Below, piece by piece: positions 9,173 through 33,836 of a stretch of DNA of 33,836 bases. Position 1 is the stretch's first letter, and every line of letters starts with the position of its first letter. This DNA is from a virus (lineage: Duplodnaviria; Caudoviricetes): positions 1 to 33,836 of IMG/VR virus record IMGVR_UViG_3300037462_000103. The stretch is one strand, 5' to 3'. The notes beneath the pieces are model-generated. The model was not told the DNA's origin. It saw only the letters and a list, made by a program, of their open reading frames with translations, and did not search any database. Made by a program: the position numbers and the translations under genes.

Positions 9173-9646
9173 TCAGTCGAAAATCCCGCCTTTTTCGGCC
9201 TCTTCATCGTCGATCGACGAGATCTCGCCCTCAATGACCGGCTTGGCCCGATCGGCCGCCACGCGCTGCAGCTGCTCGATGGCCTTTGCGATCTCTTCTG
9301 CGGTCATTTCGTGGGCTTCTTTGCCGCCCATGGCCTCGCTGGCGCCTAGCGTGCGGTCCAGAATGACCTTTGATGCCTGGACACGCGCGCCGGCCGCCGC
9401 TTTCGCGTCTGTGGCGATCTCGATCAGGCAGTTAACAGCCGCTGGTAGGGCTTCACGAAACAGGATCTCCTGTTGCTGCCTGGCAATTTCGGCTTGAACG
9501 GCTGGCCTCGCAAGGACGGCGTGCGCTTTCACTTCCGGGTGCTTATACCCCGCTTTGGTGGCCGAATAGGCCTTATCGCCGGTTCTGGCCATATTGTTCA
9601 CAAAAACTCGCTCTTGCGGCGTCCATCGTTCACCTTTTCGGGGCAT
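9173..9646 (-). CDS. Probable terminase small subunit
   Basis: N-terminal TPQERVFV...SATKAGY...AHAVLARPAVQAEI and ARVQASKVILDR segments typical of TerS; first gene of the leftward late unit. Confidence 0.65.
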   Translation of the reverse strand: MPRKGERWTPQERVFVNNMARTGDKAYSATKAGYKHPEVKAHAVLARPAVQAEIARQQQEILFREALPAAVNCLIEIATDAKAAAGARVQASKVILDRTLGASEAMGGKEAHEMTAEEIAKAIEQLQRVAADRAKPVIEGEISSIDDEEAEKGGIFD

Positions 9647-9729
9647 TAACCAAGATCCAGTTAATCTTTACACTGCCAAGATCATAGCGCGAAAATCGCC
9701 AACCGCAAAAATAATTTGTCGTTTGTCTG

Positions 9730-9759
9730 TTGACAGGTGATATACAGGTGACATACATT
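9730..9759 (+). promoter_or_regulatory. Sigma70 promoter overlapped by tandem TGA(C/T)ATACA repeats
   Basis: TTGACA at 9730-9735, TGATATACA 9738-9746, TGACATACA 9749-9757, -10-like TACATT; AAGGAG RBS before ATG 9796. Confidence 0.65.
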
Positions 9760-9795
9760 ATTCGCAGGCAACCAACAAAAAGGAGTGAAACGGCC

Positions 9796-10146
9796 ATGTC
9801 GAAGATAATAACCTTCAAGGCGCCCGCCCTGGACAACGGCAAGATTGTGCATGTTGAAAAGCGCGGTTTCGTCTGCAAGCTCTACGTAGGCAACATTCAA
9901 GAAAAATTCATTCTGCAGCTAAGCGACCTTTTCGAGAACGAAGTCGAATTTTTGACCCACTATGCCAGCGGCAACAAGGTGGGCGCGCTTAACCCGATCA
10001 AGATCCGCAACATGTGCACCCGTGGAACCGCGTCGCGCCTCACAGACCGCGACGCAGCTAAGATCCTTGTTTCCGAATTGGTTGACAAGGTTGGCGCGGA
10101 CAAGGTGTTGCGTGTCATGAAAGCCGCGCCTGTCATCAACGTCTGA
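9796..10146 (+). CDS. Hypothetical protein (first gene of putative early operon)
   Basis: ATG 9796 with AAGGAG RBS; 116 aa. Confidence 0.75.
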   Translation: MSKIITFKAPALDNGKIVHVEKRGFVCKLYVGNIQEKFILQLSDLFENEVEFLTHYASGNKVGALNPIKIRNMCTRGTASRLTDRDAAKILVSELVDKVGADKVLRVMKAAPVINV

Positions 10147-10175
10147 TTTGCCGAACGACACGAAAGGACAAACCC

Positions 10176-10505
10176 ATGTCGAAGATAATACACCCTCACC
10201 CCGCAACGTCTGAAATGCCCGATAACGCTGCAGCGCATGAAGCGCGCGGCGTTGCACCTGCCGACGAAGTTTCCATTCCGAAAAACATTGCGATCTACAT
10301 CACCGACCAATCACACCCCTCACAGCGCGACCAGTTGCCCGAAGGCGCGATCCCGGGTTTCGCTGTGTGCGTCTATCGCCTCAAAGGCCACCGCCCCACA
10401 ACCCGCCTTGAAGGCATGTGGTGCCGCTCCCAGGCACAAGCCGAGCAGATGGCGCAAGAATACGCTCGCCAATACGCCACGATGGCCGCTTGCGGCTGGC
10501 GTTGA
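10176..10505 (+). CDS. Hypothetical protein
   Basis: GAAAGGA RBS, 109 aa, operon position. Confidence 0.7.
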   Translation: MSKIIHPHPATSEMPDNAAAHEARGVAPADEVSIPKNIAIYITDQSHPSQRDQLPEGAIPGFAVCVYRLKGHRPTTRLEGMWCRSQAQAEQMAQEYARQYATMAACGWR

Positions 10506-10507
10506 GT

Positions 10508-11304: not shown

Positions 11305-11307
11305 ACG

Positions 11308-11565: not shown

Positions 11566-11621
11566 TCGCGCCCGCATTGTCTCGTTTGCGCCGTGCAATT
11601 ATAACCCACAGGAGATGCACC

Positions 11622-11831: not shown

Positions 11832-11923
11832 TCTGGCTTCTCATGTTCGGCGGGGTTGTCGTCATACTGTCGGCCCCTGCTTTGATCGTCGGACGGATTG
11901 TCCGGCATTGCTTCCGAAGATTT

Positions 11924-11952: not shown

Positions 11953-11995
11953 ATGCGTTCGGCCTCTCCCTTTTGCCTTTTCCCTGACATACAGA

Positions 11996-12166
11996 TGTGA
12001 GGCGCTTGAGGTTTGTGAGTTGTGAGGACTTCTATATAGTCGTCCTCACAATCCTCACAATTTGCCTTGCTCGACCCTCACTAAAACTCACAATTCCTCA
12101 CATTCCTATAAGCCATTGATTTCTAAGCGAATATGCTTTCCTCACAATCGCCTAACAAATCCTCAC
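11996..12166. repeat. Iteron/inverted-repeat array, candidate replication origin
   Basis: TTGTGAGGAC (12020-12029) and GTCCTCACAA (12042-12051) flank palindromic CTATATAG; further GTGAG copies on the left and CTCAC copies on the right; AT-rich; directly downstream of the primase-helicase gene. Confidence 0.7.
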
Positions 12167-14231
12167 TATCGATTTTGCGCTCCGAGAGCCAAAAGCCACG
12201 CGCCTTCTGCGAAATAAGCCCTTTTGCCTTCAATCCGCGTATGTGTTGATTGAGCGTGTCGCGCGTCATTCCGGACAAATTGTCCTTGCACCATGCTTCC
12301 AGATCCTTCGTCTTAGCGCCGCGATCCGGCTTATCGGACGTCTCGGAGATCGTCTCGATAGCATCCAGCACCGCCTGTTCGCCTTCCGTCGGCTCCCGCT
12401 TTCTGCCAGCCGTAACGGCATCCAGGCGCACCGTGCAAGACGTGATCGGATCGTTTTGCTTATCGAGCCCCAACTTGTGAACCTCAAGTGAAAAGGCCGA
12501 CGACCAGGCTTTGTCCAGGTCTCGTTGTTTCGTGACCTGAATAAGCCCCTCGGAGACTTCGAGTTCGGTATCGGTAGCAGCACGCAAGGATGAATGCCCA
12601 CGCGCTCCCTTGGCCCTGTCCTTGCCTGTGTGATGCACGATCATGACATGGGTGTCGATCGCGGCCTGGATCTCGCCCACGTTCTTGACGATAGCGCCCA
12701 TGTCGACCACAGAGTTTTCATCGCCGCCGGCAAGCGCTCGAGCCAACGTGTCGACGACGACAAGGCCGATCTTATGGCGCCCTGTGTCTTCGGCCTTCAG
12801 CAGTTCGATAAAAGCGTTTAGATCAATTTTCGGATTGCGGAGGTCTACTGCAGACTTGAGCAACCGGAACGGCGGTTCCTCGCCCGGATTGTACTTCGCC
12901 TTGAGCGCCTTCACGCGCTTGCTGGCCCCGCGGCCGCCTTCCATGGCAACATAGAGCACGCCCATCTGTTGCGTCCACATACCAGCATAGGGGCGACCGG
13001 TGGCGATGTGGTAGGCCATATCCATGGCGACGAACGTCTTGCCCACGTTGCTGTCGCCGTAAAGCACGCTCATGGCGCCCTGGTCGAGCAAACCCTTGAT
13101 CAGCGGATCTGCCATGTCGTCGAGTGCTTCCTCGGCGGCCTCATAGAACCCGACCGTCTTGAACTTCGTCTGCGGGGTCTTGGAAGCGTTTAGCTCAACA
13201 TCGGCGCCAAAGAGTTCTTCGCCAAGGCTGCGCACCGTTTCATCACGGAACCATGTCTCAGCTTGGATCCGGTCGCGCTTCTCCTTATATGCCTTATCGC
13301 CGTGCTGCTCGGCGAGCGACAGGATATAGTCGGCGCCGAGCGCAAACGGCGGCTGCAGACTGTTGTAGGCTCGTGTCGGATCCTCGGTGAGCTCGTCATC
13401 CGGTAAGCGCTCCGAGAACTCGCAGAAGATATCGAGGCCGACGTAAGGATCATCTTGACACGCCCCGCGAATGCCGGCGGCTATCTTGATCCAATCGTCA
13501 TAGCGGAACCTGCCGTCGTTCGGGATAGCACGTACGGCCTCGGCGATCTCTTCCAGATTGCCCTTCAGGCTTTCCTGATCAACGGCCTCACGGTCGATCT
13601 GCGTCGAGCCTGCGCCTTGCGCCTTCGGAAGATCCTTGGCGAGACGCGCGAAGAACTCCGATATCTGTTCCTCGGTGACTGTGGTCAATTGGCTGGCGTG
13701 CGGTATGCCCTCCGGCCACGTATAGGGCTTGCCGGTCACGGGATGCGTGCCGATCGCCACGAACCACTTTGTCCCGTCGCCACCCGACAGGCACTCGACG
13801 AGGCCGGGCTTCGCAGGATCGACGCCATCGTCGAAGCGGACCTGGCGGTAATCGATGCGGTCAGCAGCCCGGTAAACCAAAAGGCATTTAGGTGAACGGC
13901 CGATGCGGACGGGGGCTGGTCCGAGAACCTTGAGAGCCGCCTTGTGGACCTTGGCGGCCCACTCCGGGCTCATGCTGTCGATGTCGATCGCGATGAACTT
14001 GCCATTGCACCGGATGCCGGCGCCTCCACCCCAGCCGTTCCACATGTCGGCCTGTTGCAGTGTGGCGCCGTCGAACTCGCGCACGCCGACGCCATACCAG
14101 CCGTTCGGTCCCTTGCGGCCCGGACGCTTGCCCGCTTCGCGAACAGGCTCACCGGGCGGAATGACGCAGAGCAGGTGATCGTAACCAAGGTCGAGCAGCT
14201 GACGGAATTTGTTTGCTGGTGTCATGTTCAT
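12123..14231 (-). CDS. Bifunctional primase-polymerase / PriCT-2 / AAA_25 (RepA-like) helicase
   Basis: N-terminal AEP-type IAIDID and GTHPVTGKPYTW; YDDWIKIAAGI PriCT-like; Walker A GDSNVGKT, LVVVDTLAR, IVHHTGKD..KGARGHSSL; C-terminal wHTH-like region. Confidence 0.9.
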   Translation of the reverse strand: MNMTPANKFRQLLDLGYDHLLCVIPPGEPVREAGKRPGRKGPNGWYGVGVREFDGATLQQADMWNGWGGGAGIRCNGKFIAIDIDSMSPEWAAKVHKAALKVLGPAPVRIGRSPKCLLVYRAADRIDYRQVRFDDGVDPAKPGLVECLSGGDGTKWFVAIGTHPVTGKPYTWPEGIPHASQLTTVTEEQISEFFARLAKDLPKAQGAGSTQIDREAVDQESLKGNLEEIAEAVRAIPNDGRFRYDDWIKIAAGIRGACQDDPYVGLDIFCEFSERLPDDELTEDPTRAYNSLQPPFALGADYILSLAEQHGDKAYKEKRDRIQAETWFRDETVRSLGEELFGADVELNASKTPQTKFKTVGFYEAAEEALDDMADPLIKGLLDQGAMSVLYGDSNVGKTFVAMDMAYHIATGRPYAGMWTQQMGVLYVAMEGGRGASKRVKALKAKYNPGEEPPFRLLKSAVDLRNPKIDLNAFIELLKAEDTGRHKIGLVVVDTLARALAGGDENSVVDMGAIVKNVGEIQAAIDTHVMIVHHTGKDRAKGARGHSSLRAATDTELEVSEGLIQVTKQRDLDKAWSSAFSLEVHKLGLDKQNDPITSCTVRLDAVTAGRKREPTEGEQAVLDAIETISETSDKPDRGAKTKDLEAWCKDNLSGMTRDTLNQHIRGLKAKGLISQKARGFWLSERKIDSEDLLGDCEESIFA

Positions 14232-15750: not shown

Positions 15751-16212
15751 TCAGACATCGCGTTTGCGAAGAACGATCTCGTATCCCAGGACTTCCGCAA
15801 CGGCCTTGAACAGCGACAGCCGCGGATCGTTGTGTCCTTTCTTCCAGCGCGACAGCACATTCCACGACACGCCGGCCTTGGCTGCCACGTCTTCCTGGGT
15901 GACGCGCTGGTCCCACATCTCGTCGAAGATCTGCCGGATCAACGGCTCCCCGGTGACGATCGCGTTTCGACTGTCCAGCTTGCGGACCTTTTCCTTCGGC
16001 TCGCGGGGCTTCATCCGGGCCGCCTTGCGGCGCTCGACGGCTTCGCGCTTGCGCCGCTGGTATGCCTCGACGGCCTTCTCGCTGTCGTAGATCACGACGG
16101 CGCTCTTGCTGATCTTCAGCTTCTCGGCGACCTGGCGCTGCGTCATGCCGCCTTCCCGGAGCCGATGGATCTCGGCAACCACGTCGTCGGTTATCGCTCT
16201 ATGCCGGCCCAT
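15751..16212 (-). CDS. Two-domain HTH regulator (N-terminal HTH plus C-terminal XRE-type HTH)
   Basis: ATG 16212 with GGGAGG RBS; MTQRQVAEKLKISKSAV and VTQEDVAAKAGVSWNVLSRWKKG..DPRL. Confidence 0.8.
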   Translation of the reverse strand: MGRHRAITDDVVAEIHRLREGGMTQRQVAEKLKISKSAVVIYDSEKAVEAYQRRKREAVERRKAARMKPREPKEKVRKLDSRNAIVTGEPLIRQIFDEMWDQRVTQEDVAAKAGVSWNVLSRWKKGHNDPRLSLFKAVAEVLGYEIVLRKRDV

Positions 16213-16459
16213 GGCTCGCCCTCCCGCGCTTCCATTCCCGAACCGCCGCCCGTCGCTTCTCCATTTTCGCCGGATCGGACTTGATCTTCTGCCAGGTGTT
16301 TGCATCGCGAAGCCGCACCGCGTCTTCGTTCGCATCGGACAGATACTTCCAGGCAGTGCCGGGACTGACGCCGACCCGGCGGGCGATCTTCGCAAGCGTC
16401 AACCCGCGGCGTCTGAGCAGGCGGATCTCCTTGACCATGGCTGTTGTGACGACCGTCAT
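16199..16459 (-). CDS. HTH DNA-binding protein
   Basis: GLTLAKIARRVGVSPGTAWKYL; AGGAGG RBS. Confidence 0.75.
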   Translation of the reverse strand: MTVVTTAMVKEIRLLRRRGLTLAKIARRVGVSPGTAWKYLSDANEDAVRLRDANTWQKIKSDPAKMEKRRAAVREWKRGRASHGPA

Positions 16460-17795: not shown

Positions 17796-18020
17796 TCAGT
17801 CGAAGATTGATGTCGGTTCTTGTCGGTCTTCATCCCGGACATCGCCCGGAAATGCTGCAGCCAGCACGGCGGCCTCGGTCGGCCCCTTGAACTGGTAGGT
17901 CTGCTCGTCGGGAGTGATGATCTCCAGTGTGACCGGCTGGCCCGCATAGGCGTAGACGGTCATCGAAAGTTCAGGGTGCGCTGCCCGGGCCTCATCCAAA
18001 GATGTCAAGCTGGTTTTCAT
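17796..18020 (-). CDS. Hypothetical protein ending in SIFD
   Basis: 74 aa, AAGGAG RBS. Confidence 0.7.
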   Translation of the reverse strand: MKTSLTSLDEARAAHPELSMTVYAYAGQPVTLEIITPDEQTYQFKGPTEAAVLAAAFPGDVRDEDRQEPTSIFD

Positions 18021-18213
18021 CGGGCAACTCCTTCGCAGGCGCGGTCACGATGTCGCGGATCTCCGCATCGGACTTGGCGCAGTAGTCCCGCAGCACCCAC
18101 TCGACGAGCCGGGTACGGGATATCTTGAGTTTGCTGGCACGCCGGTCGAGCATCTTCATCAGGACGTTCGGCAGGCGCATCGTGGTTATGGCTGTGTTCG
18201 GCCCCGGGGCCAT
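17992..18213 (-). CDS. Ribbon-helix-helix (CopG/Arc-like) regulator
   Basis: ATG 18213 with AGAGGA RBS; TTMRLP..LMKMLDRRASKLKISRTRLVEWVLRDY strand-helix-helix pattern. Confidence 0.75.
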   Translation of the reverse strand: MAPGPNTAITTMRLPNVLMKMLDRRASKLKISRTRLVEWVLRDYCAKSDAEIRDIVTAPAKELPDENQLDIFG

Positions 18214-22619: not shown

Positions 22620-24833
22620 TCAATCCTTCTTGTACCGCTTCGCCCTGAAGCCGCCCGCCGTCAACGGCAGACCATCCGCCCAGGCCGGGAGTTCGCAGAT
22701 CAGCTTTTCGAACTCCCGCACGTCGCCATAGCCGCGCGGCACTTCCGCCAGGATTTCATCGTAGACGGTCGCGACGATTTCGTAGCCATTGCTCTCGGCC
22801 TTGAACATGCCGTTGGCGAGAATATCGCGCGCAATTGCTTGGGTATTGTTCTCAGCGATTATGCCCGAGTATAGGGCGTAGCGCTCCCATTTCCGTGTCA
22901 CCGAGTTGACGCCGAGCACCGTAACCTTGTCGGACGTCTCGCCTTCGATCCGCGCAGTTCCCTTGCGCTCACCGGCCTGCGCGGCTTCGCGGTCCATGAC
23001 CTCGCTGTCCGACCAGGTGCCATCGGGCAGCAGGATCTTCGCCCATACCTGTGCTTTCAGGCGCGGCGCGCCGTAGGCAAGGCACCGGCCGGACGGGAGA
23101 CGAGCCCACAGGAAGCCATTCCTGAAGATGTAGCTGACCATGGCCGCGGATGTGATCGTGCCGGGATTGGCGACCGCATCGCGCACAGCGGCCTCGAGGT
23201 CGCGCCACGACTTGGCAATGGCCGAGTTCTGCGCCCGCCAGCCCAGCTTGACGACTTCGCAGGCGATCCATGCGTCCTGCGACAGGATCTGCGTGCCTGA
23301 TAGCCCGCGCTTCGCCTGGCCCTCGTAGCGCTTGCGGGCCTTTTCCAGTCGCTCCCGATCGGCCTGTTCCAGGATCTGTTTTGCAATCCCTTCCAGGTTG
23401 ACGCCATAGCCGCGCGCGAAGGTGACGAACGCCATCACACCGCCGCCATACGAAAGGCCGAGCTCCGCTGGCTTCCCGACCGCCTGCCGCGCCCAATGCT
23501 TCTTCGTCACTTCCTCGGTCGTCAGGCCGAGGATCGAGGCAGCCGTGCGCCGGTACATGTCCGGCAGGGACGGATCGACGTTGAGTTCGCGGATCGCTTT
23601 CAGCTTCCATTCCTCGTTCGCCGTCCACGCGATGACGTTGCCTTCGATGTTCGAATAGTCGGCTTGCACGAACTCCTTGCCGGGTCCGGCCCAGATGAAG
23701 CCGCGGATCGCGTCGGAGATCAGGTGCAGGGAGCGACCGAGCTCGTCGCCATACAGGAAGGTCAGCCAGTCGGGGTCTTCGCTGCGGAACGCGTCGAACA
23801 GGACGTCCGGGCGGGGATGCTGTTCTTCGTATATCCGACGAGGGCGCGGCAGATTGCTCGTATTGACGCCTTGGCTCTGGAAACGCCCCGTGCCGGCGCC
23901 ATGATACATCGACGTTCCGCGCACTCGCCCGTCAGCGCTGGCGCGATCGAGCATGGCCTGCAGTTTCGCGACCGATGTCTTCGCAGCCTCCTGCCGGATC
24001 TCCAGCGCCTTACGCACATTGTCGGGCAAATCGTCGTAAGCCAGCAGATCGGTGATTTCGGATTTGGCCGCGGAGTTCAGTTCTATCCCCTGATCCTGAA
24101 CCCAGGCAACGAGCTTACCGGGCTCGGAGCATTTGCGCACTGCGCCACCGGTAATCTCGCGCATCTGCTGGTCAAACTGCGCCTTGGCCTTCTCCGCGAT
24201 GACGATCGCGTGCCGAGCGGAATTACGATCGACGCGAATGCCGCGCTGATTGATCTTCGCGTTCAGCGTCCATAGGGCCTGTTCGGCATCAGAGAGTGGT
24301 ACGATGCGGCGCGCTATGGCCTCTTCGACCTCGACGTCGGTCATGCAGTATCGGATGAATTTCTGCCAGTCCTCCGCGTTCTCCGGGGCCAAGGGATCGT
24401 TGAACCCGCCGCCCCGCTTCGGGATCGAGAACTTGCGGATCAGACGTTGACCTTCTTTGTCCTTCTGGACGTCCAGACCAAGGGCCGCCGCTGCGTCGCC
24501 AAGCGCGCGGGGCAAGGACATCGCCGCAGCGGCGGCCATGGTGTCGACGTATTGCCCGATCTTCGGTCGAGGCCAGCCGTGGCGGTCTGCCAGGGCCTCG
24601 AAGCCCAACATCTCGAATTGGGCGTTCCAGGCGTGAATGCGCGCGCCGCCTTCGATTGCCATGCACAGATCGCGAGGTTCGGGCTGATCGAAGGTCCAGA
24701 CTTGAAGAGGACAATCGTTGATCCGGTAGGCGCACATCAACGCTTCCGTCTCCGGATGCGCCCAATAGACATGCGCGCCGTGTTTCTTCAGATCGACGGG
24801 GCTTCTGCTCTCGAAGTCACAGGAAACCTTCAT
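22620..24833 (-). CDS. polA: DNA polymerase family A with 3'-5' exonuclease
   Basis: CDFES, AWNAQFE and YCMTDV exonuclease motifs; GTGRF, ADYSNIE (motif A), RQAVGKPAELGLSYG (motif B), ENNTQAIARD, TVYDEI (motif C). Start at ATG 24833. Confidence 0.93.
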   Translation of the reverse strand: MKVSCDFESRSPVDLKKHGAHVYWAHPETEALMCAYRINDCPLQVWTFDQPEPRDLCMAIEGGARIHAWNAQFEMLGFEALADRHGWPRPKIGQYVDTMAAAAAMSLPRALGDAAAALGLDVQKDKEGQRLIRKFSIPKRGGGFNDPLAPENAEDWQKFIRYCMTDVEVEEAIARRIVPLSDAEQALWTLNAKINQRGIRVDRNSARHAIVIAEKAKAQFDQQMREITGGAVRKCSEPGKLVAWVQDQGIELNSAAKSEITDLLAYDDLPDNVRKALEIRQEAAKTSVAKLQAMLDRASADGRVRGTSMYHGAGTGRFQSQGVNTSNLPRPRRIYEEQHPRPDVLFDAFRSEDPDWLTFLYGDELGRSLHLISDAIRGFIWAGPGKEFVQADYSNIEGNVIAWTANEEWKLKAIRELNVDPSLPDMYRRTAASILGLTTEEVTKKHWARQAVGKPAELGLSYGGGVMAFVTFARGYGVNLEGIAKQILEQADRERLEKARKRYEGQAKRGLSGTQILSQDAWIACEVVKLGWRAQNSAIAKSWRDLEAAVRDAVANPGTITSAAMVSYIFRNGFLWARLPSGRCLAYGAPRLKAQVWAKILLPDGTWSDSEVMDREAAQAGERKGTARIEGETSDKVTVLGVNSVTRKWERYALYSGIIAENNTQAIARDILANGMFKAESNGYEIVATVYDEILAEVPRGYGDVREFEKLICELPAWADGLPLTAGGFRAKRYKKD

Positions 24834-24922
24834 GACACCACCAGCCAGGCGATGAAGCCGATCGCGCACCACATGGCGATGCCGGCGGGAAGGGCGATAA
24901 GCAGTCCGCGGAAAAACGTCAT
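24830..24922 (-). CDS. Small membrane protein, 30 aa (below ORF-track cutoff)
   Basis: [30 protein letters not shown]; ATGA overlaps at both ends couple the methylase gene to polA; GGGGAG RBS. Confidence 0.7.
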   Translation of the reverse strand: MTFFRGLLIALPAGIAMWCAIGFIAWLVVS

Positions 24923-26169
24923 TCGAAAATACTCCCCTGCAAGGCGTTGTCGTTCGTCATTTCAGACACGGCGGTCAGTCGAAGATCGACGGTGTCGAGA
25001 TACGCTTCGATGAAGGTTTGCGCCGCTTGGGCAACGATTGCATTGCCGTAGCCGCGCAGTCGTCCCACTCGGGCGGCAGCCCCATGAGCCAGCGGGAATG
25101 TGCCGGGTTCAACTGGCCTCCACTTTCCATCCCGGCAGAAGAGCCAGTCAGCATCTCGCCAGTGGCCGTTAGTCGGGCCGGTTCTGTCTTGATGAAGGCC
25201 AGATGCGCCTGCGACGCCACCCCCATGTTGACCTTCCGGCCTGACGGGTGTTGCCCGGTCATCGTCGTGTCCGGATGCGGCCTCTTGCCTCCATTCCCGT
25301 CGCTCGCCGCCGGAGAGTTCCATGCCGCCAGCTGCACAAAGTCGTGCAGATCGTTTGATCGATCCGGGTTCATCGCTCGCTTCGCCTGACCGCCGCCCGT
25401 CCCATCCGAGGCTTGCGGCGTCGGCCACCCCGCCAAGTTGGCCTGTCTCGGCAACTGATCGAACCTCTCCGAGCCATCCGCCCTCGGCTTGATGTCCGCG
25501 CCGCTGTCCTTCCAGTCTCTCGTCGTCGTCGTCACCCACCCGGCCAACGCCGCGACGCTCGGCAATTCGTCCAAATGCCCCTTTCGCTCCAGTTCCTTCT
25601 GGATCCCCTGTTCGGTCCTCGCGCCTTTCGATCCGTCTATCGATCTCGGCGTCGGCCAGCTTTTCCGCGAACCACCAGAGCCGTTGTCTGATATGGGGCG
25701 CGCCGACGCCCGCAGCGCAGAGATCGACCGCCCCTGCGGCGTAGCGCGCTCCTTCCAGGTCAGTTTGAACAAGGTCGAGCCAAGCGAGGCCGTCCTTGCT
25801 TGCAACCTGCTCACCAAAGACGAGGCGAGGACGGCACTCTCGGATGAGGTGGATGAAGGACGGCCATAGATGCCGCTCGTCATCCATCCCGCCTCCCTTG
25901 CCTGCCGCGGAGAAAGGTTGGCAGGGACACGACCCGGTCCAAACTTCAGCGTCATCCGGCACGCCAGCGCGACGGAGGGCGTAAGACCAAACTCCGATGC
26001 CAGCGAAGAAATGTACCTGTCGAAATCCTCTAAGGTCATCGGCTCTGAGGTCGTCGATGCTGCGTCGATCGACAACGCCAGGCGCAATGTGTCCAGAGGC
26101 AATAAGCTGCTCGAGCCAAGCGGCTGCAAAGGGGTCGATTTCATTGTAGAGCGCCCATGGTTTCGTCAT
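24919..26169 (-). CDS. C5 DNA cytosine methyltransferase, alpha polypeptide
   Basis: FFAGIG (motif I), GSCPCQPFS (IV), GEQV (VI), [10 protein letters not shown] (VIII), [10 protein letters not shown] (X); central part looks like off-frame filler. Confidence 0.9.
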
Positions 26170-26218
26170 CCGAAGATATCTCCGAGGATGGGGTTGTCGT
26201 TCGTCATTTCAGACACGG
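24946..26218. repeat. 26-bp perfect direct repeat (24946-24971 and 26193-26218)
   Basis: GTTGTCGTTCGTCATTTCAGACACGG at both positions. Confidence 0.9.
24975..25883 (-). CDS. C5 methyltransferase beta polypeptide (variable region plus motif IX), nested in an alternative frame
   Basis: ATG 25883 preceded by GGGAGG; four W(P)T(P)...D repeats and [18 protein letters not shown] motif IX-like; the frame is open from 26144. Confidence 0.75.
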
Positions 26219-26390
26219 TCTTCACGCCCAGCGCGGCCTTCACGGCGACCACCGGATCGGCGTGCGTATCGCAGCGCCAGGACGTCCCGTCGCGCGACGT
26301 GTTGGCCTGCCAGCCGTCTTGCGTCTTCCATAAGGTCATCGCTCGGAGGCCGGACTTGCCGGCCTCCTGCAGTGCTTCGTCGATCGTCAT
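26166..26390 (-). CDS. Hypothetical protein ending in DIFG
   Basis: 74 aa, ATGA overlaps at both ends. Confidence 0.7.
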   Translation of the reverse strand: MTIDEALQEAGKSGLRAMTLWKTQDGWQANTSRDGTSWRCDTHADPVVAVKAALGVKTVSEMTNDNPILGDIFG

Positions 26391-27029: not shown

Positions 27030-27341
27030 CTACCCGAAGATCCCGATAGCGTGGCCGTATGTGTCGCGGAGGTCTTCCCACTCCTTGCGCACATCCGGCT
27101 CCATCTTCCGGAGCTTCAACATCTCGGCCAGGATCTTCTTGTCGTAGCCCTTGGAGGCGTACTCTTCCTTGACCGATTTGATGTCGTCGGCGATCGTCTG
27201 CTTCTCGGCTTCCAGGCGCTCGATGCGCTCGACGTAGCTGAGGACGTCTCGCCCGAGATCGTTCGCCGGCCGGGGCTGGCCGTCAGAAGTCGGGGCCTTT
27301 GCGGGCTTGCCGACTTCCATGGGGTTGAACTCTTCAGCCAT
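27030..27341 (-). CDS. gapR: GapR/DUF2312 family nucleoid-associated protein
   Basis: SYVERIERLEAEKQTIADDIKSVKEEYASKGYDKKILAEMLKLRK matches the UPF0335/GapR pattern. Confidence 0.88.
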   Translation of the reverse strand: MAEEFNPMEVGKPAKAPTSDGQPRPANDLGRDVLSYVERIERLEAEKQTIADDIKSVKEEYASKGYDKKILAEMLKLRKMEPDVRKEWEDLRDTYGHAIGIFG

Positions 27342-27573
27342 CGACCCGGCCCTCCATGTGCTTGACGAGCTCGCCGACCGTGTTGAACTGGCCGATCTCT
27401 TCGTCGTTCGTTTCGACGCCGAACTGATCTTCGATCAGCACTGCCGTCTCGACTACATCCAGGCTGTCGAACTTGAGGTCTTCCCGGAAGGTGTCGGTCA
27501 GGCTGATCGTCTCCTTGCCGGTCTGTTCCTTGAGCACGTCGAGGATGCGCTCTTCGATGGTCTTAGGCTCCAT
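27334..27573 (-). CDS. acpP: Acyl carrier protein
   Basis: 79 aa, acidic; FREDLKFDSLDVVE phosphopantetheine-Ser motif, IEDQFGV, TVGELV; AAGGAGG RBS. Confidence 0.9.
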   Translation of the reverse strand: MEPKTIEERILDVLKEQTGKETISLTDTFREDLKFDSLDVVETAVLIEDQFGVETNDEEIGQFNTVGELVKHMEGRVDG

Positions 27574-27854: not shown

Positions 27855-28499
27855 TCAGCCGAAAAGACCGGCAGCGCCTGCACCACCCTTCGTCTCGGCG
27901 GGCGCGTCGCCCTCGTCTTCGATCTTCTCGAAGAACTTGTCCGGGTCAGGACCGCCACCGCCGCCACCGAGGATAGCGTCGCCTTCGGCCTTCTTGACGC
28001 GCTGGACGTGGCTGATACCGAACGATACGCCCTTGCCGCCTTCGTCGTTCTCCCAGGCATAGCAGTTCACGACCGCATAGACTTCGGAGCCGGACGGGAT
28101 CTCGTCCTTCTCGTAGATCGGGTTGCGCTTCGCATCCCAGACCTTCGGCTTGAAGTCGATGCCGGATGCGCAGCGAATGAACCAGTGGCCGGGGAAGCCC
28201 TTGTGCGGCTCGCCGGTCTCCTTGTGCTTGCCCTGCCTGCCGTCGCCGTCCAGGAACGGGCTCTTCAGGATCTCGCTCTCGACGAGGGCCTTGGCCTTCT
28301 CGCCCCACTTCGCCAGCGCCGTGTCACCGACCAGCTTGCGAAGGGCCGAGATGTCGGCCGACTTGGGGAACAGCAACGTGCAGCCGTACTGCTTCTTGCC
28401 GTTGTCCCTTTCCTGGGGTTCGAACAGGTTGTGCGCGTAGGCGATCACCGCGAGCGGCGTCTTGATGTCATCGGAACGTACGTTTTTGCTCTTAGCCAT
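27855..28499 (-). CDS. ssDNA-binding protein (DUF2815 / gp2.5-Enc34-like)
   Basis: AYAHNLFEP..KYGCTLLFPK, PFLDGD, FPGHWFIR, SGSEVYAVVN.YAW...KGVSFGISHVQ, acidic tail. Confidence 0.85.
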   Translation of the reverse strand: MAKSKNVRSDDIKTPLAVIAYAHNLFEPQERDNGKKQYGCTLLFPKSADISALRKLVGDTALAKWGEKAKALVESEILKSPFLDGDGRQGKHKETGEPHKGFPGHWFIRCASGIDFKPKVWDAKRNPIYEKDEIPSGSEVYAVVNCYAWENDEGGKGVSFGISHVQRVKKAEGDAILGGGGGGPDPDKFFEKIEDEGDAPAETKGGAGAAGLFG

Positions 28500-28520: not shown

Positions 28521-29828
28521 TTAGTCGAGAATGTCGAAATGCTTGTGCGCTGCCGGCGGGATCGCCGACCGCGTTGTCTTCGAGGCGCGAACAAGGTTCG
28601 ATCCGTTCTCCGGAGTGAAGGACAGTTCCTTGATCTCGCGCAGTGCTGCGTCGGCCTTGGCTTTGGCGAGCGCGTCGCGGACCTGTTTGGGCGTGCGGAT
28701 CTTCGGTGCGTTGAACACCTTCTCATCCGGGATCCCGGCCTGCTTCGCGATGGCCGCTGCCTTGGCTTCTGCGTCTTCCGCCCACTTTTCCCGGCCCGTC
28801 TTCGGAACCAGGATGTAGTTCGGTATCTCGACGCCCTGCTCGGCCAGTTCGTGCGCGCGGGCACGGCGGGCCTTGATCCAGTCCTCGATCATGTCGAGGG
28901 CGTCGAGGTCGCGGGCGATCTTTGCGGGATCGTCCGCATCGGGCATGTTGGTCAGACGCGGCTGGTCGAGGTCGTCAAACCAGACACCAGCGGCGTCGAA
29001 CGCTTTTTGCTCCAAGGCCGGGCACGTACCGGCCGCTTTGCAAAATTTACACCAAGGGCCAGCGGCGAGATGTTTCTCGGCCCATGTCGCCATCGGCATA
29101 GGAAGGCCGAGAGACTTGTCGCCTTGTCTATCGGCAAAGGCATCCGCGGACCTGCGCATGGCTTCCATCAGATCGCCCGTCCATTCGACCAGATCGGCCA
29201 CATGGAAGGTTTCCGAGCGGGTTCGACCATCCTTGTGCGGAGCACGCGGCTGGACGATCGTCACCGTGACCTTTTCGACCGCCAAGCCCTTGTTCGCGAG
29301 CATGGCGCCGAGAGCATAGGTGCGAAGCTGGGGATTTCCCTTCACTTCGACGACATGCCCTCGCCCACCCTTCAGGTCGACGACCTCGAGTTCCTTGGTG
29401 AGCGGCTTGTAGATCACGGCGTCCGCTGTGCCCCCGGCCTCGAAAGGCGGGTTCATGGCGGCCAGGCTGAACTTCTGCTCAATCTGGATAAGATCGGCAG
29501 GGTTCGTGTTCTTCGGTGCGGCAGCGATGGCTGTCTGCCGCACATAGTCGACAAATTCCTGCGCAGTCTCGGCCATCTCTTCATCGACCTCGAAGGAGTG
29601 CATCTTCCCCTTCCTGGTTTCACCGATGAAGTTGTCGGCCTGAACACCTTTGCGCAGGCAGATTTCGGCGATCTCATGCGCGCAGGTTCCCCAATCGGCC
29701 GCCTCGGACGTTTTCTCCGGCAGGTCGATCGTGAGAGCGAGCGCTCCGGCGCAGGCCCAATTCCGTTCTGTGGAACTGGCCGACCAAGTCGCATGATCGC
29801 GGGCGGCGTGGTCAACCATTGCCGTCAT
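28521..29828 (-). CDS. DUF2800 family PD-(D/E)XK (Cas4-like) exonuclease
   Basis: HA.WSASS..R..AC, GTCAHE, GGTADAV, VVDLKGG, NPQL..YALG, IVQPR, GPWCKFCKA..TCP. Confidence 0.9.
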   Translation of the reverse strand: MTAMVDHAARDHATWSASSTERNWACAGALALTIDLPEKTSEAADWGTCAHEIAEICLRKGVQADNFIGETRKGKMHSFEVDEEMAETAQEFVDYVRQTAIAAAPKNTNPADLIQIEQKFSLAAMNPPFEAGGTADAVIYKPLTKELEVVDLKGGRGHVVEVKGNPQLRTYALGAMLANKGLAVEKVTVTIVQPRAPHKDGRTRSETFHVADLVEWTGDLMEAMRRSADAFADRQGDKSLGLPMPMATWAEKHLAAGPWCKFCKAAGTCPALEQKAFDAAGVWFDDLDQPRLTNMPDADDPAKIARDLDALDMIEDWIKARRARAHELAEQGVEIPNYILVPKTGREKWAEDAEAKAAAIAKQAGIPDEKVFNAPKIRTPKQVRDALAKAKADAALREIKELSFTPENGSNLVRASKTTRSAIPPAAHKHFDILD

Positions 29829-29997
29829 ACTCCGTAGTGGCCTGGAACTCGCGAGAGAGCCACGCCATGAACGCCGGGAGGTCTTCCCTGGCGACGAGGA
29901 TCTTGTCCGCTGTCTCCAGATCGCCGTTAGCGCTCACGCGAAAGTTCTCGTCTTCGGTCAGGAACTCTTCGGTTTTGCGGATTGCGTGTGGCATCAC
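29812..29997 (-). CDS. Hypothetical protein
   Basis: 61 aa, overlaps both neighbours in the operon. Confidence 0.6.
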   Translation of the reverse strand: MMPHAIRKTEEFLTEDENFRVSANGDLETADKILVAREDLPAFMAWLSREFQATTEYDGNG

Positions 29998-30680
29998 GCA
30001 CCATAACGGGTGTCAGACGCAGCGGCCTTCTGCCACGCATCGACGCACGCCTTCAGCTTCTTCTGGTCGTCCGGCAGGATCGACATCTTCCAGAACGGGT
30101 TGCCTGCCGGCGGCTCGCCCAGCACGGAGACGAACAAGGCCGGACCATCGGCCGTTGCGGCTTCCATGCCGAACTTGTTCACATACAGACCGACCGCATT
30201 GCGGACGTCGTCGGCGGTCAGCGGAGCTTCCGGCTTGCGCGCGGCTTCCACTTCGGCCTGTTCGTCGGCCTTGTCTTGTGCCGCCGTTTCTTCGTCGTCC
30301 TCGGGGCCGACACGCTCGCCGCCGGTCGAGATGGCCTGCGTATCGGACTTCTCGGCAGCTTCGTCCTCGGCGATCTCTTCCTTGGTACGGCGCTGTTTGC
30401 CCGGGGCGGGCTTGCCGCGCTCGCGCTTCGGCTCTTCGGAGACGGCCTCGGCCTGCGCCTTGATCGCTTCGACCGCCTCGCCCGAATACGGGGCCGACGC
30501 TGCGGGGCCGAGGACCGTCTTCGACGGCGAACCGATATAAGCCGCAGAGGCGTACATTTGGTCCTTCTTTTCGCGCAGTTCAGCTGCGGTCGGCAGAGTG
30601 CCGTTGATTGCGTCCAGGAGTGCGCGAAGGCCGGTGGCCTCCTCCTTGGACATATAGCCGGTGTCAAAGTTGATGTTCAT
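29994..30680 (-). CDS. Hypothetical acidic protein of the replication module
   Basis: 228 aa with RRTKEEIAED and LTADDVR segments; AAAGG RBS; upstream of DUF2800. Confidence 0.75.
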   Translation of the reverse strand: MNINFDTGYMSKEEATGLRALLDAINGTLPTAAELREKKDQMYASAAYIGSPSKTVLGPAASAPYSGEAVEAIKAQAEAVSEEPKRERGKPAPGKQRRTKEEIAEDEAAEKSDTQAISTGGERVGPEDDEETAAQDKADEQAEVEAARKPEAPLTADDVRNAVGLYVNKFGMEAATADGPALFVSVLGEPPAGNPFWKMSILPDDQKKLKACVDAWQKAAASDTRYGA

Positions 30681-30696
30681 GCGAGTACCTTTCTTG

Positions 30697-31200
30697 TCAG
30701 ATGTGCTTCCAGCAGCGGCGAGTTTTGATCCCGCTGACGTGGACTTCGGATATGCCGTATTCCTCAGCGATCACTCGCTGCTTCCTGCGATCGGCACGTA
30801 TCGCGAGAACTTGTTGTTCGGTTAAACGATGCTTTGGGTGGCCCTCGCCGCGGATCACGACGCTCATGCGTTCGCCGTACCAGTGACGGCGTTTCTGCAC
30901 GCAGTCGTCACGGTTGTCGCGAAACGGCCCTATGAAAAGATGGTCCGGACGCACGCAGCTTGGGTTGTCGCAGCGATGGCAAACGCACGTTCCGTGATAA
31001 CCTTCGCCTGGCGGGATCTCGCCATAAGCCATCTCATACGACAGACGGTGTGCTCTTATACCTTTGCGCCTATCGCTGATGATACCGTAGCCTTTGTCGT
31101 TCTTGCGTGCGGTCCACACCCAGCAATCGCCATCAGGACCGTGTCCGGGTGTCTTGTCGACTTTGCTCCAGAACCGTGTTTTCGGGTCGGACTTTTTCAT
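30697..31200 (-). CDS. HNH homing endonuclease with C-terminal HTH
   Basis: RFWSKVDK..CWVW..GYG..AHRLSY..VCHRCDNPSCVRPDHLF; ATGA overlap with helicase stop. Confidence 0.92.
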   Translation of the reverse strand: MKKSDPKTRFWSKVDKTPGHGPDGDCWVWTARKNDKGYGIISDRRKGIRAHRLSYEMAYGEIPPGEGYHGTCVCHRCDNPSCVRPDHLFIGPFRDNRDDCVQKRRHWYGERMSVVIRGEGHPKHRLTEQQVLAIRADRRKQRVIAEEYGISEVHVSGIKTRRCWKHI

Positions 31201-32552
31201 CGCAGAACCTCTCGGATCGCCGCCCATTTACGCATTAAAATTTCCTGAAGTGCCTCGTCGATCGAACCGGCCATGACGGCGACGCGGACGTTCACGATCC
31301 GCTGCTGGCCGAAGTTCGTGACGCGCAGCGACATCTGCCGCATCTGAGCGGGCTGGAACGACGTCTCGACGAACAGCATCTCGGCTGCGCGGCTTAGATC
31401 GATCGCCTCGCCGGCCGCTTGGATCTGGCCGAGGAACACCCTGGTCGACGGGTCGGTCTGAAACCGCTCGACGGAGGTTCGTCTGTTGTCCGCTGAACTC
31501 GTCCCATCTATTCCCACAACGCCAAACGTCGAGAGGCCGTCTTTCAGGATCTGCCCGACGTCCTTGTGCCAGTAAGCCAGCACGATCTTGTCGAGCCCGC
31601 AGGCGAACTCGTCCTTCACGGCCTCGACGACGGCCCTTGCCTTGATCTCGCCGGTCAGGCGGCGCAGAGGGCCGAGGTGCATGTCGAGTGCGCGGGTGTC
31701 GCCGGCTTCAGCGGCGGCCAGGATCTGTTCGGCTTTCAGGTCGCCTTCGACTTCGCGGCGGATGGCCGGCGAAACGGCGAGCGGCAGGATATCGTAAATC
31801 GGCTCGCGGATGCCGACGTCCTGTTGGGTGCGCAGGAGCATGAAATCGCCGACGCGCTCTCGCAGTTCGGGCAAATTGCGCCCGCCAATGACAACCGGTA
31901 TCTTGCGGAACGCCGATATCTTTTTCATGCGCACGATGCAGTATCGATGCAAAAAGTCCTGTTCGGCTGTTACGTCTGGAAAATCGGCCGTTGCCTGGAG
32001 GCAGCCTGGCTTGAGCGCCCGAAGCATCGGATAGAGATCGTTCGGCGCGTTCGGCATTGGTGTCCCGGTGAGGCACCAGACATTGCCGCCGGCCGCGTGA
32101 GTTAGGGCCGTGCTGGTGTTCAGGGTCGCGCCGCCCTGCGTGAAGTCACCATAGGCCGATTGCGTGCGCTTCGCTTCCGTGGACTTAGCCATGTGCGCTT
32201 CGTCTAGGATAAGCCGGTTCCACTTTCGCGACAGAAGCTGCGAGCGGATCTTCGGGTCCGTTATGCCGTTCCACCCCACGATCGCAACGTCAGTGGAGTG
32301 CAGAAGCTTCTCGGTTCCCTTGTAAAGAACCTGGACCGCCCGACCGAACGCCGACCACTCGCGCATCGCGCGGTTCCACACAGGGCGCCCAGAAGCGGTC
32401 GTGACGATAAGGATCTTCTCTTCGAGGTTCAGATCGGCAGCTATGATGCTCGTGCCGGTCTTCCCGCATCTTGGCTGATCGGCCAGCAACGCCGTATTGC
32501 GAGCAGCGAGGAAGTGCGCGCCGGAAAGCTGTGTCGGGAAAGGCTTCATCAT
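31197..32552 (-). CDS. SNF2-like superfamily 2 helicase
   Basis: LLADQPRCGKT, LILDEAH, LTGTPMPN, AAGEAIDL motifs. Confidence 0.9.
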   Translation of the reverse strand: MMKPFPTQLSGAHFLAARNTALLADQPRCGKTGTSIIAADLNLEEKILIVTTASGRPVWNRAMREWSAFGRAVQVLYKGTEKLLHSTDVAIVGWNGITDPKIRSQLLSRKWNRLILDEAHMAKSTEAKRTQSAYGDFTQGGATLNTSTALTHAAGGNVWCLTGTPMPNAPNDLYPMLRALKPGCLQATADFPDVTAEQDFLHRYCIVRMKKISAFRKIPVVIGGRNLPELRERVGDFMLLRTQQDVGIREPIYDILPLAVSPAIRREVEGDLKAEQILAAAEAGDTRALDMHLGPLRRLTGEIKARAVVEAVKDEFACGLDKIVLAYWHKDVGQILKDGLSTFGVVGIDGTSSADNRRTSVERFQTDPSTRVFLGQIQAAGEAIDLSRAAEMLFVETSFQPAQMRQMSLRVTNFGQQRIVNVRVAVMAGSIDEALQEILMRKWAAIREVLR

Positions 32553-33073
32553 GACGAAAACCTCGTACCGATCAGTTCAACGCCCGTAGGCTTTGCCCAC
32601 ACCTTGCCGCGCATGATGTGAGAGACCAGCGACTTGTGAATGCCGTAGATGTCGGCGATGTCCGCGTGGCGCCAGCCTCTGCGCGCCAGCTTGCGGATGT
32701 GATCGACCTTCTCTTCGTTCAGCTTAGCGTTCGGTGATGCTTCACCATTGAACGAATACGTCCAGTGGCGCTTCTTACCTGTCATGTCGGCCGAGTTGTC
32801 GGCCATTGTACCGACGAAGAGGTGGTTCGGGTTGACGCAGGCCGGGACGTCGCAGCGATGGCAGACAACCTCACCGGGGAGCAAGGGCCGAACGAAAGTG
32901 TGAAAGCTAAACCGGTGCGCAGCAACGACGCGCTCACCATCAGAGAAACGGCCGTAACCGAGCTCGTTCGCGCCAGCAAGCCATATGACGCAACCGCAAA
33001 ACGGAACCGGCATGGTCTTTGCGTGAAAAGCGGCTATTCGCTGTTCGGGGGAGTAGGAGTTTCGGTTGGGCAT
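32549..33073 (-). CDS. HNH homing endonuclease with C-terminal HTH
   Basis: GCVIW..GYG..AAHRFS..VCHRCDVPACVNPNHLFVGT..DN, GE..PNAKL, IADIYGI. Confidence 0.92.
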   Translation of the reverse strand: MPNRNSYSPEQRIAAFHAKTMPVPFCGCVIWLAGANELGYGRFSDGERVVAAHRFSFHTFVRPLLPGEVVCHRCDVPACVNPNHLFVGTMADNSADMTGKKRHWTYSFNGEASPNAKLNEEKVDHIRKLARRGWRHADIADIYGIHKSLVSHIMRGKVWAKPTGVELIGTRFSS

Positions 33074-33120
33074 TCCAGCAAGTCCTCAAAGTCCACAAAG
33101 CCATAAAGGGCGGATCGTCG

Positions 33121-33157
33121 TCCGTCGTTGTATGTCGCCATAACATACAATGACGGA
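33121..33157. promoter_or_regulatory. Long inverted repeat containing ACATACA half-sites (operator or hairpin)
   Basis: TCCGTCGTTGTATGT-CGCCATA-ACATACAATGACGGA, 15-bp arms with one mismatch. Confidence 0.55.
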
Positions 33158-33164
33158 CAGAAAG

Positions 33165-33587
33165 TCAATCGGATTTTTTCGTCAGCCGCGCGATTTCGCG
33201 ATCGATGTACCAGCGAGCCTTCTTAAGATCTTCGATCTCGTCGCCCTTCTCGCCTGCACGCCAGATGTACTTGACCGCGTTGCCGCGGCAGAAGTTCATG
33301 TGCTCGGTGATCTGGATGCACTCTACGCCGGACGGATGGCCGGTGTAGTGCGAAGGGTGTTCAATCGCGTCGTGAGTTGCGAGGACGAAGGTCTCGCAAA
33401 AAGCAGCATCGAGGACCCATGTGTGCCCGGTCCCGCCGTTCGTCTCCATTCCGAAGTTGTCGGTCATCTGAAAACCCTCTGCCGGCGTCGGGCCGCGCAT
33501 GACCTCGTAAGTTTTGCCCGCAGTGTAAAATGGCTCTGCGGAGCGAACGCATCGCCACTGCTGGCCCACCTGAATTTCTATCGTCAT
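33165..33587 (-). CDS. DUF3310 family protein (T7 gp1.7-like nucleotide kinase domain) with N-terminal extra domain
   Basis: HPSHY...VECI...FCRGNAVKYIWRAGEK...EDLKKARWYI. Confidence 0.88.
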   Translation of the reverse strand: MTIEIQVGQQWRCVRSAEPFYTAGKTYEVMRGPTPAEGFQMTDNFGMETNGGTGHTWVLDAAFCETFVLATHDAIEHPSHYTGHPSGVECIQITEHMNFCRGNAVKYIWRAGEKGDEIEDLKKARWYIDREIARLTKKSD

Positions 33588-33836
33588 CCAAATATTCCTT
33601 CTGTCGGTTGATCGGTCTTGTCGTTCGTCGTTTCAGACAGCGCCGACACGCGAATAGTCATGCCGGGCTTGTCGCCGTACCTCTTTTCGATCGAGGTCTT
33701 CACGATCTGGCTGTCATCCACCCATACGATGAGATTGCAGGCGTCGATCGTCTTCATGAAGTTGTCCAGGTCCGGCTTTTTCGTCGGAAGCTCCCTGCCC
33801 TCGCGAGCGGCCTGCTGGCGCTTCTTCGGCCACGAT
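33584..33836 (-). CDS. rusA: RusA family Holliday junction resolvase (5' end outside the window)
   Basis: Manual translation: ...PTKKPDLDNFMKTIDACNLIVWVDDSQIV...SETTNDKTDQPTEGIFG-stop; KPDxDN and DDxQ motifs. Confidence 0.88.
   Translation of the reverse strand, partial: SWPKKRQQAAREGRELPTKKPDLDNFMKTIDACNLIVWVDDSQIVKTSIEKRYGDKPGMTIRVSALSETTNDKTDQPTEGIFG

Follow-up and report, generated by a model that had tools for sequence, protein, structure and literature searches.

Ten proteins of the window, the whole stretch of 33,836 nucleotides of phage DNA analysed here, end in the same short C-terminal tail, and this tag system spans a group of temperate phages of alphaproteobacteria, not one genome. 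Each genome spells the tail its own way across unrelated protein families (I-F, V-F, L-F, A-F, V-L, or A-L). This genome-specific code is a new point, beyond what could be seen in the original prediction, which was made from this DNA alone. The common spelling across all tagged proteins (clients) of a genome makes it likely that the tail is a private docking code read by one of the phage's own proteins, because a private code that switches genome-wide needs a partner inherited with it. We think it rather probable that the tail is a copy of the docking tail of the phage SSB, and that it fits a single pocket of a reader encoded by the phage, most likely the C-terminal domain of ORF228. The tagged proteins of the window and their neighbours are given below, with the fraction of orthologues that are tagged under a strict and then a broad definition; the lower coordinate of each gene is its stop.

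9173..9646, minus strand: terminase small subunit (TerS; weak PF03592, phrog_51), ends in EKGGIFD, tag codons at 9173-9187 (24/31 strict, 30/31 broad)
12123..14231, minus strand: primase-helicase (AAA_25), ends in CEESIFA (27/33 strict, 32/33 broad)
17796..18020, minus strand: 74-residue protein of no known family, present in 33/35 genomes, ends in EPTSIFD (29/33 strict, 33/33 broad)
17992..18213, minus strand: small putative ribbon-helix-helix (RHH) protein, ends in NQLDIFG (19/22 strict)
22620..24833, minus strand: family A DNA polymerase, untagged (0/34), a rival candidate reader
24919..26169, minus strand: C5 DNA methyltransferase, main frame (MTase-alpha), ends in LQGSIFE
24975..26144, minus strand: methyltransferase subunit in the overlapping second frame (MTase-beta; phrog_1008), ends in STPSIFD (14/15 strict, 15/15 broad)
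26166..26390, minus strand: 74-residue protein of no known family, 3' end resembling the MTase main frame, ends in ILGDIFG (27/29 strict, 29/29 broad)
27030..27341, minus strand: GapR-like nucleoid protein, ends in HAIGIFG (28/34 strict, 33/34 broad)
27855..28499, minus strand: gp2.5/Enc34-type SSB (PF10991, phrog_112), disordered tail with motif A (PDKFFEKIED) and the tag GLFG
28521..29819, minus strand: DUF2800 PD-(D/E)XK exonuclease, ends in HFDILD (motif A-like)
29994..30680, minus strand: ORF228, untagged clade-wide protein (0/35) with an acidic linker and a three-helix C-terminal domain (about 29994-30239)
31197..32549, minus strand: SNF2-family ATPase, untagged (0/34), a second candidate reader
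33584..33836, minus strand: RusA resolvase, 5' end beyond the window, ends in PTEGIFG (21/24 strict, 24/24 broad)

Among the 53 window proteins called by our own gene caller, 10 end in [ILVM]-F-x; the motif occurs at 53 of 9,489 internal positions, which gives a binomial p of 4.6e-13. The excess is stronger for I-F-x alone, found in 9 of the 53 (p 1.4e-16, or 2.8e-13 after a correction for 2,000 choices of motif and position), and non-gene frames give a background of 100 in 18,767. The original prediction, that ten proteins share a C-terminal [I/L]-F-x tail, is borne out, with all ten tails found at their stops. It had placed most of the tags on acidic or flexible linkers, which does not hold for MTase-beta, where the linker is basic, or for GapR, which has almost none. 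Nor do all tails qualify as independent: the last 45 nt of MTase-alpha and of the 26166 protein match at 35 positions, and both proteins carry VSEMTNDN. The RHH label of the 17992 protein is best regarded as inferred, since there is no Pfam or PHROG match. RusA, truncated by the window end, has a complete copy in genome G001.

The enrichment extends to 35 related genomes of 41-53 kb, where 321 of the 2,100 called genes end in [ILVM]-F-x, compared with 0.64% of internal positions. Its register is sharp, since Phe occupies position -2 in 17.7% of proteins and positions -1 and -3 in 2.5% each. The residue before this Phe (n=354) is I (122), V (102), L (94), A (19), F (10), P (4), or M (3). The tag is spread over 53 protein families, and most genomes have 8-14 clients. 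These are non-structural, mostly DNA-acting proteins with tails on variable or disordered linkers; in TerS, only the last four residues are kept across the clade, and the linker varies in length. Core virion proteins are tagged in 1 of 419 cases. The conservation of the tail in orthologues of related phages had been proposed as a check, as had its occurrence on host GapR; the tail is conserved in the former and is lacking in 29 of 29 host GapR proteins. The clients also include Cro-like and RHH-like proteins and a capsid-region protein, which are not obvious replisome parts.

The SSB tail is the likely source of the tag. It is predicted to be disordered (pLDDT under 50), and 118 of the 120 SSB homologues listed end in [LVM]-F-x, with a penultimate Phe, terminal Phe being seen only in outgroup SSBs. 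We found no hit in Rfam, no description of this tail system among the entries listed by searches of an open-access library, and a single distant match in a prophage search of 401 genomes of the class of G041. A look-up of the 17796 protein in the Atlas gave only unnamed clusters, all under 0.9.

The agreement of residue -3 between different families of one genome is 0.565, compared with 0.299 when permuted (maximum 0.348 in 5,000 permutations). Whole codes can switch. Genome G009 uses V-L-[DE], and its SSB adds ASGGSALD after the ancestral GGLFG, in line with the switched code; the tails of L153 read A-L-G. The SSB tail itself is mostly G-L-F-G regardless of the dialect of the genome. The dialect may be determined by the host, and hosts are on record for a minority of genomes; two phages of Rhizobiaceae have different dialects (I in N65, V in G021).

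These patterns bear on whether the motif could be a by-product at the DNA level, either a ribosome-binding site with its AU-rich spacer ahead of an overlapping start codon or a DNA repeat that was copied. Three window tags do overlap the next start codon, and GGAGATATCTTCGGATGA can be read as such a site with its spacer and an ATG. The codon at -3 is richer in A/T endings than that of internal X-Phe pairs (for Ile, ATC in 58/122 versus 69%), and in one pair of tails the DNA has been copied. However, overlap with the next gene is as frequent in tagged genes (101/350) as in untagged ones (527/1,750), and the dialect signal persists when uncoupled genes are taken alone (0.569 vs 0.325). Synonymous codons agree at 0.35 within and 0.31 between genomes, which is no real excess, only one copied tail pair was found across the 35 genomes, and the shadow frames do not rise above background. 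This explanation is largely refuted, and we regard it as very improbable. The orthologue conservation, the lack of the tail on host GapR, and the failure of coupling or codon homogenisation to explain the tails support the earlier claim of selection at the peptide level for a shared addressing tag.

That claim left open which hub reads the tag, naming the host clamp or a phage factor, or whether it is a degron. The data favour the phage factor. Docking on the host beta clamp DnaN through degenerate clamp-binding motifs is quite unlikely, even if the core [SGD]-hydrophobic-F-G matches host DnaE motifs (QVSLFG, for example) at their positions 3-6, and phage Mu proteins use host DnaN, one of them through DLF only (PMC12867686). 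Like the bacterial motif QL[S/D]LF, the tails have an [S/D/G]-hydrophobic-F core, often followed by Gly, on DNA-acting proteins. They differ in their fixed C-terminal position, whereas clamp motifs can be internal, and in their Val and Ala dialects. The canonical motif fits poorly because Gln is rare and A-F dialects exist. Gln at -6 is found in 17 of 350 tags, 6 of these in the RHH-like family, the sole one often having Gln upstream (Q-[LIV]-D-[LI]-F). By contrast, of 29 host DnaE loci, 25 have the motif where it is expected, and all 25 retain Q and L/M. The V-F (102) and A-F (19) tags exist although a Leu-to-Ala change abolishes MuC-clamp binding. Moreover, the phage polymerase has neither a conserved clamp motif nor a conserved internal copy of the tag, and the two Rhizobiaceae hosts carry different dialects. 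A phage clamp has a precedent in T4, where gp43, gp33, and gp55 are unrelated proteins with interchangeable hydrophobic acidic C-terminal tails for one phage partner, gp45 (PMC2988020). There the gp43 polymerase is tagged, whereas the polymerase is untagged here, and no sliding-clamp family was recognised among the window proteins scanned (40 in one scan, 30 in another) or among the clustered clade-wide families.

The phage family A polymerase could itself be the hub, as in T7. The T7 gp4 primase-helicase ends in a Phe tail, and the primase-helicase of our phages likewise does. The likeness to T7 gp2.5 and Enc34 ORF6 (DUF2815) extends to the gp2.5-type SSB, its disordered acidic tail ending near Phe, and the family A polymerase module. 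In T7 the gp2.5 tail docks on the polymerase (PMC12339929, PMC5686142), and close polymerase pairs of our phages have a common dialect. Yet the Phe is terminal in gp2.5 and penultimate here, and the T7 tail occurs on two or three proteins, against 53 families with genome-specific dialects. The polymerase is also not the best-supported reader: among the module genes, its tree follows dialect least well (13 changes vs 8-10, 30 taxa), its nearest-neighbour score for dialect is -0.28, and the three A-F genomes are scattered on its tree. We consider this hub distinctly improbable.

A turnover signal, by which a phage adaptor or host protease would remove tagged early proteins at a set time, is also unlikely. 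It would account for the strict C-terminal register, typical of degrons, and for the presence of regulators (Cro-like, RHH-like, and GapR-like) among the clients while the integrase (1/30) and the cI-like repressor (0/26) are almost never tagged; a phage-encoded adaptor would explain the dialects too. But a Lon-type host degron fits poorly because a third of the tails end in Asp or Glu (114/350), and such a degron is expected to be intolerant of a terminal acidic residue. The LarA Lon degron of Caulobacter is disrupted by one terminal Asp (PMC10665427). Furthermore, the SSB bears the same tail, and in T7-type SSBs the tail is a docking device (PMC5686142); among the clade-wide genes we recognised no family of phage proteases or adaptors.

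Within the preferred explanation, docking on a phage-encoded reader, we predict the reader among the SNF2-ORF228-DUF2800-SSB block, which the dialect follows better than it does the polymerase. The ORF228 three-helix C-terminal domain is our lead candidate, with the SNF2 ATPase a close second; we would assign about half of our confidence to ORF228 and about a quarter to SNF2, leaving the remainder to SSB or DUF2800. ORF228 was found in 33 of 33 genomes, and its family, which is uncharacterised, comprises at least 755 clusters at 50% identity. Its domain is predicted with a pLDDT of 88. In a post hoc test on 3-4 records, the three A-F genomes fall within a set of 4 rows (support 0.99) for ORF228, the smallest among the 20 families that all three possess; RusA is nearly as tight (5 rows), and SNF2, polymerase, SSB, and DUF2800 require 17-28 rows. 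L153, left out of this test, lands in the same clade of the C-terminal domain. ORF228 is long (over 300 aa) in each of the four A-dialect records, with the domain in tandem, and the alignment was built on the last domain copy because of these tandem copies. The tree of the domain requires 12 dialect changes compared with 22.4 when shuffled (part of the gene trees were made with FastTree). The domain is also the best nearest-neighbour predictor of dialect (0.32, and 0.38 for the last 40 residues), with a scoring that favours a fast-evolving domain. However, on 43 taxa the SNF2 tree needs fewer changes (10 vs 12), and the A-dialect set is grouped as well by columns 320-399 of SNF2 as by the ORF228 domain. 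In none of the untagged proteins is there an alignment column that by itself predicts dialect well (best leave-one-out scores about 0.3). When a complex of the ORF228 domain and the 30 C-terminal residues of TerS was predicted, both runs scored 0.00, with the partner fold uncertain, which speaks neither for nor against binding; in the AlphaFold2 monomer of the SSB, its own tail is not docked. ORF228 could instead read motif A, in which case the link to dialect would reflect gene linkage.

Structural comparisons offer a parallel. Red-beta of phage lambda has a three-helix domain that binds the SSB tail, through its Phe, and the exonuclease (PMC6393309). Like this domain, the ORF228 domain is predicted to be a bundle of three helices, of roughly 70 residues, beside an exonuclease. 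ORF228 lacks the annealase domain of Red-beta, and the tail that Red-beta reads is that of the host SSB. Foldseek searches of the PDB and BFVD gave no match at E<=0.001, VIA-align gave no Z of 8 or more, and the Atlas clusters retrieved for ORF228 were all unnamed and under 0.9. In the VIA-align list, Orf (1pc6) ranks third (Z 5.2, rmsd 4.6, 75 aligned), and homology to it is not established because this Z is within the chance range for helical bundles.

If the preferred explanation holds, the [G/D/S/N]-hydrophobic-F-x tail at the free C-terminus of about ten proteins per genome, changing in step within each phage, would bind a protein whose pocket recognises the Phe and the terminal carboxylate. 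The outcome would be a tool-belt collecting SSB, primase-helicase, resolvase, methyltransferases, GapR, and TerS at the sites of phage replication, recombination, and packaging. This suggests a route by which methyltransferases, GapR, and other accessory genes are connected to a phage replisome, and would assign a function to a widespread uncharacterised gene adjoining DUF2800/DUF2815. A broader form, possible but doubtful, is a clamp-free, phage-private addressing system in which the ORF228 domain is a universal adaptor for a four-residue code, genes join the hub by gaining the tail, and reader and code drift together into insulated dialects. Tandem duplication of the reader domain would aid this drift, and insulation would prevent related phages, whether co-infecting or resident, from using one another's enzymes.

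In known shared docking tails, the hub is a sliding clamp or SSB; the same logic appears here in small temperate phages with no recognised clamp. Dozens of genomes provide natural variants in which the whole client set is respelled together, a ready test case for how a short motif, present on ten or more proteins at once, co-evolves with its pocket, and orthogonal four-residue tag/reader pairs could serve as tools. The group has a cultured member, Rhizobium phage RHph_N65.

We also considered the DILD end of DUF2800 as an eleventh tag, and rejected it in favour of motif A. HFDILD appears to be a second motif, common to this exonuclease and the SSB-internal PDKFFEKIED. In three relatives, DUF2800 has gained the full tag.

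All ten C-terminal tails of the original prediction were found in the window at their respective stops on the minus strand. The tag is a tail of the form [G/D/S/N]-hydrophobic-F-x (strict form [ILVM]-F-x), where -1 is the last residue and -2 the Phe. The strict form ends 10 of the 53 called window proteins versus 53 of 9,489 internal positions (p 4.6e-13), and its count in the non-gene frames of 35 genomes is 100/18,767. Genes were called with a purpose-written gene caller, and the second-frame methyltransferase ORFs were added by BLAST. Family scans support TerS, the primase-helicase, both methyltransferase (MTase) frames, GapR, the SSB (gp2.5/Enc34 type), and RusA; they gave no match for the proteins with stops at 17796, 17992 (RHH-like), and 26166. 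The tail is a real and strong feature on which selection acts at the peptide level, and its genome-specific spellings, or dialects, are the surprising part of the system.

The window comes from a temperate phage with an SNF2-ORF228-DUF2800-SSB-PolA module, where ORF228 is the untagged protein at 29994-30680 (-). Among named phages, Rhizobium phage RHph_N65 (N65; polymerase 55%) and EBPR siphovirus 2 (ESV2; polymerase 51%) are closest to this one, and the names of homologues suggest hosts in the Rhizobiales and Caulobacterales. The clade set comprises 35 records of at least 33 kb each. Near-duplicates (window/G001; G033/G034/G037) were counted, but removed from most covariation tests.

In these genomes 321 of the 2,100 called genes are tagged versus 0.64% of internal positions; in three outgroup records, 1 of 137 genes is. 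Phe occupies -2 in 17.7% of the clade proteins versus 2.5% at each of -1 and -3, hence a strict register to the free C-terminus. Position -4 is chiefly G/D/S/N, and -1 chiefly G/D/A/E/S. The tail is conserved in orthologues from related phages.

Tagged orthologues per family (strict form, broad form, total)
TerS: 24, 30, 31
Primase-helicase: 27, 32, 33
17796 protein: 29, 33, 33
RHH-like: 19, 20, 22
MTase beta: 14, 15, 15
26166 protein: 27, 29, 29
GapR: 28, 33, 34
SSB: 31, 34, 35
RusA: 21, 24, 24

Among the 120 SSB matches listed (the best 120 of 332), 118 end in the tag. In TerS the linker varies in length and conservation is limited to the final four residues. The 53 families with tags include many accessory methyltransferases and nucleases. 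Tags were not found in the polymerase (0/34), SNF2 (0/34), ORF228 (0/35), or the cI-like repressor (0/26), and in only 1 of 30 integrases. Core virion proteins lack it across the clade, with 1/419 tagged (leaving aside TerS and two virion-region families in which part of the members have tags), and host GapR lacks the tail in 29/29 cases (omitting one unpublished genome). A looser tag, often hydrophobic-[LM]-x, ends 19/32 products of a gene located between those for the capsid and the head-tail proteins (18619-19179 in G001).

Each genome has one preferred spelling, although some are mixed.

I-F: window, N65
V-F: ESV2, G005
L-F: G014, G038
A-F: G008, G011, G023
V-L: G009
A-L: fragment L153

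Different families of the same genome agree at residue -3 with a frequency of 0.565 versus 0.299 when permuted within families (5,000 runs, maximum 0.348; SSB excluded). The SSB of G009 retains the ancestral GGLFG and has ASGGSALD appended, matching the tails of the other tagged proteins (clients) of that genome, SVLD/SVLE.

That the motif is a DNA-level by-product is hardly credible. Stop-start overlaps are about as frequent in tagged (101/350) as in untagged genes (527/1,750), the dialect signal holds in uncoupled genes (0.569 vs 0.325), and synonymous codon agreement is nearly equal within (0.35) and between genomes (0.31). These tests agree with the predicted selection on the peptide rather than on DNA. 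One tail pair, within the window, is copied DNA, which suggests one route for the spread of the tag. Over all genomes together, codons at -3 ending in A/T are in excess (Ile ATC 58/122 vs 69% before internal Phe).

The original prediction left the choice between an addressing tag and a degron, and its host-clamp version and a Lon-type degron fare poorly. In the class to which G041 belongs, assumed to be Alphaproteobacteria, the internal DnaE motif is Q-x-x-[LM]-F at the expected place in 25 of 29 loci (three without match, one elsewhere). Docking of the tails on the host clamp (DnaN) is improbable: Gln stands at -6 in just 17/350 tags, and Val or Ala precedes Phe in 121/354, while Leu-to-Ala abolishes MuC-clamp binding in the excerpt of PMC12867686. 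The tags do not share the tested features that define beta-clamp motifs, and no conserved clamp motif was found in the phage polymerase. Canonical-looking motifs are frequent only in the RHH-like family, whose members might additionally bind the clamp. A turnover signal is rather unlikely. Against a Lon-type degron, 114/350 tags finish in D/E, whereas the LarA degron is disrupted when its last residue is Asp (PMC10665427); turnover may instead run through a phage adaptor. The phage polymerase is a doubtful hub, since it follows dialect worse (13 changes on trees of 30 taxa) than the SNF2-ORF228-DUF2800-SSB block (8-10).

We therefore lean, if slightly, towards docking on a phage-encoded reader within the SNF2-to-SSB block, a model that accounts only partly for the SSB tail staying mostly GLFG outside G009. 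As the code switches across whole genomes, its partner was presumably inherited with it. The lead candidate is ORF228. Of the 20 families that each of the three A-F genomes has, ORF228 is the one whose tree confines these genomes to the smallest group (4 rows, support 0.99; RusA 5, ORF228's neighbours 17-28), and L153, kept out of this test, falls into the same ORF228-domain clade. The C-terminal domain, a confidently predicted three-helix fold (pLDDT 88), occurs in 33/33 genomes of at least 40 kb and forms a family of at least 755 clusters; it is in tandem in the A-dialect records and also in several V, L, and I records. Its tree requires 12 dialect changes versus 22.4 when shuffled, and it best predicts dialect by nearest neighbour (0.32 vs 0.23-0.26). 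Against ORF228, the whole SNF2 tree requires only 10 changes on 43 taxa; SNF2 columns 320-399 group the A-dialect set equally well, and covariation by alignment column gave no single decisive column. ORF228 might instead read motif A, a second motif:

28521-28545 (-), DUF2800 C-terminus (HKHFDILD)
about 27920-27960 (-), SSB interior (PDKFFEKIED)

The two resemble each other, and the pairing recurs in outgroup G017, with AADFAGV in both proteins. Given the rivalry of SNF2, the lack of a decisive column, and the motif A alternative, the reader is a ranked guess. The structural match of the ORF228 domain to lambda Orf is within chance (Z 5.2, rmsd 4.6). The Red-beta domain, which binds an SSB tail and an exonuclease (PMC6393309), is nevertheless an apt analogy.

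Distant phages with the same module have fewer tail-sharing proteins, usually including SSB and often terminase:

Ralstonia phage DU_RP_II (L284): 3/38 tagged (gene before TerL PDIFS, TerL YNIFG, SSB GGMFD)
ct8d5349: 4/51 tagged
G017: three proteins ending PASLF
BcepC6B (L285): 0/46 by tag pattern; exonuclease and primase both end GSDLA
Mae-Yong1326-1: 1/57 tagged

We infer that the SSB-tail interaction is ancestral and that its clientele expanded in this clade. T4 clamp-binding tails (excerpt of PMC2988020) and the T7 gp2.5 tail (excerpts of PMC12339929 and PMC5686142) work similarly, but features that were tested set the clade tails apart from both. No account of this system was found in searches of open-access full text.

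The window and G001 are strongly mosaic (polymerase 95%, ORF228 96%, SSB only 63% identical). Other window genes include:

15751-16707 (-), three tandem HTH genes, all untagged
18308-19477 (+), RtcB RNA ligase (family scan), with no counterpart in other clade genomes at the clustering threshold used
27334-27573 (-), acyl-carrier-protein-like gene (PF00550), directly upstream of GapR; in the clade comparison only the window, G001, and G002 had one
24919-26169 (-), C5 methyltransferase in two overlapping reading frames

M.EcoHK31I is a C5 methyltransferase likewise split over two overlapping frames. This layout occurs in 15/35 genomes and in outgroup G019, whose copy is untagged.
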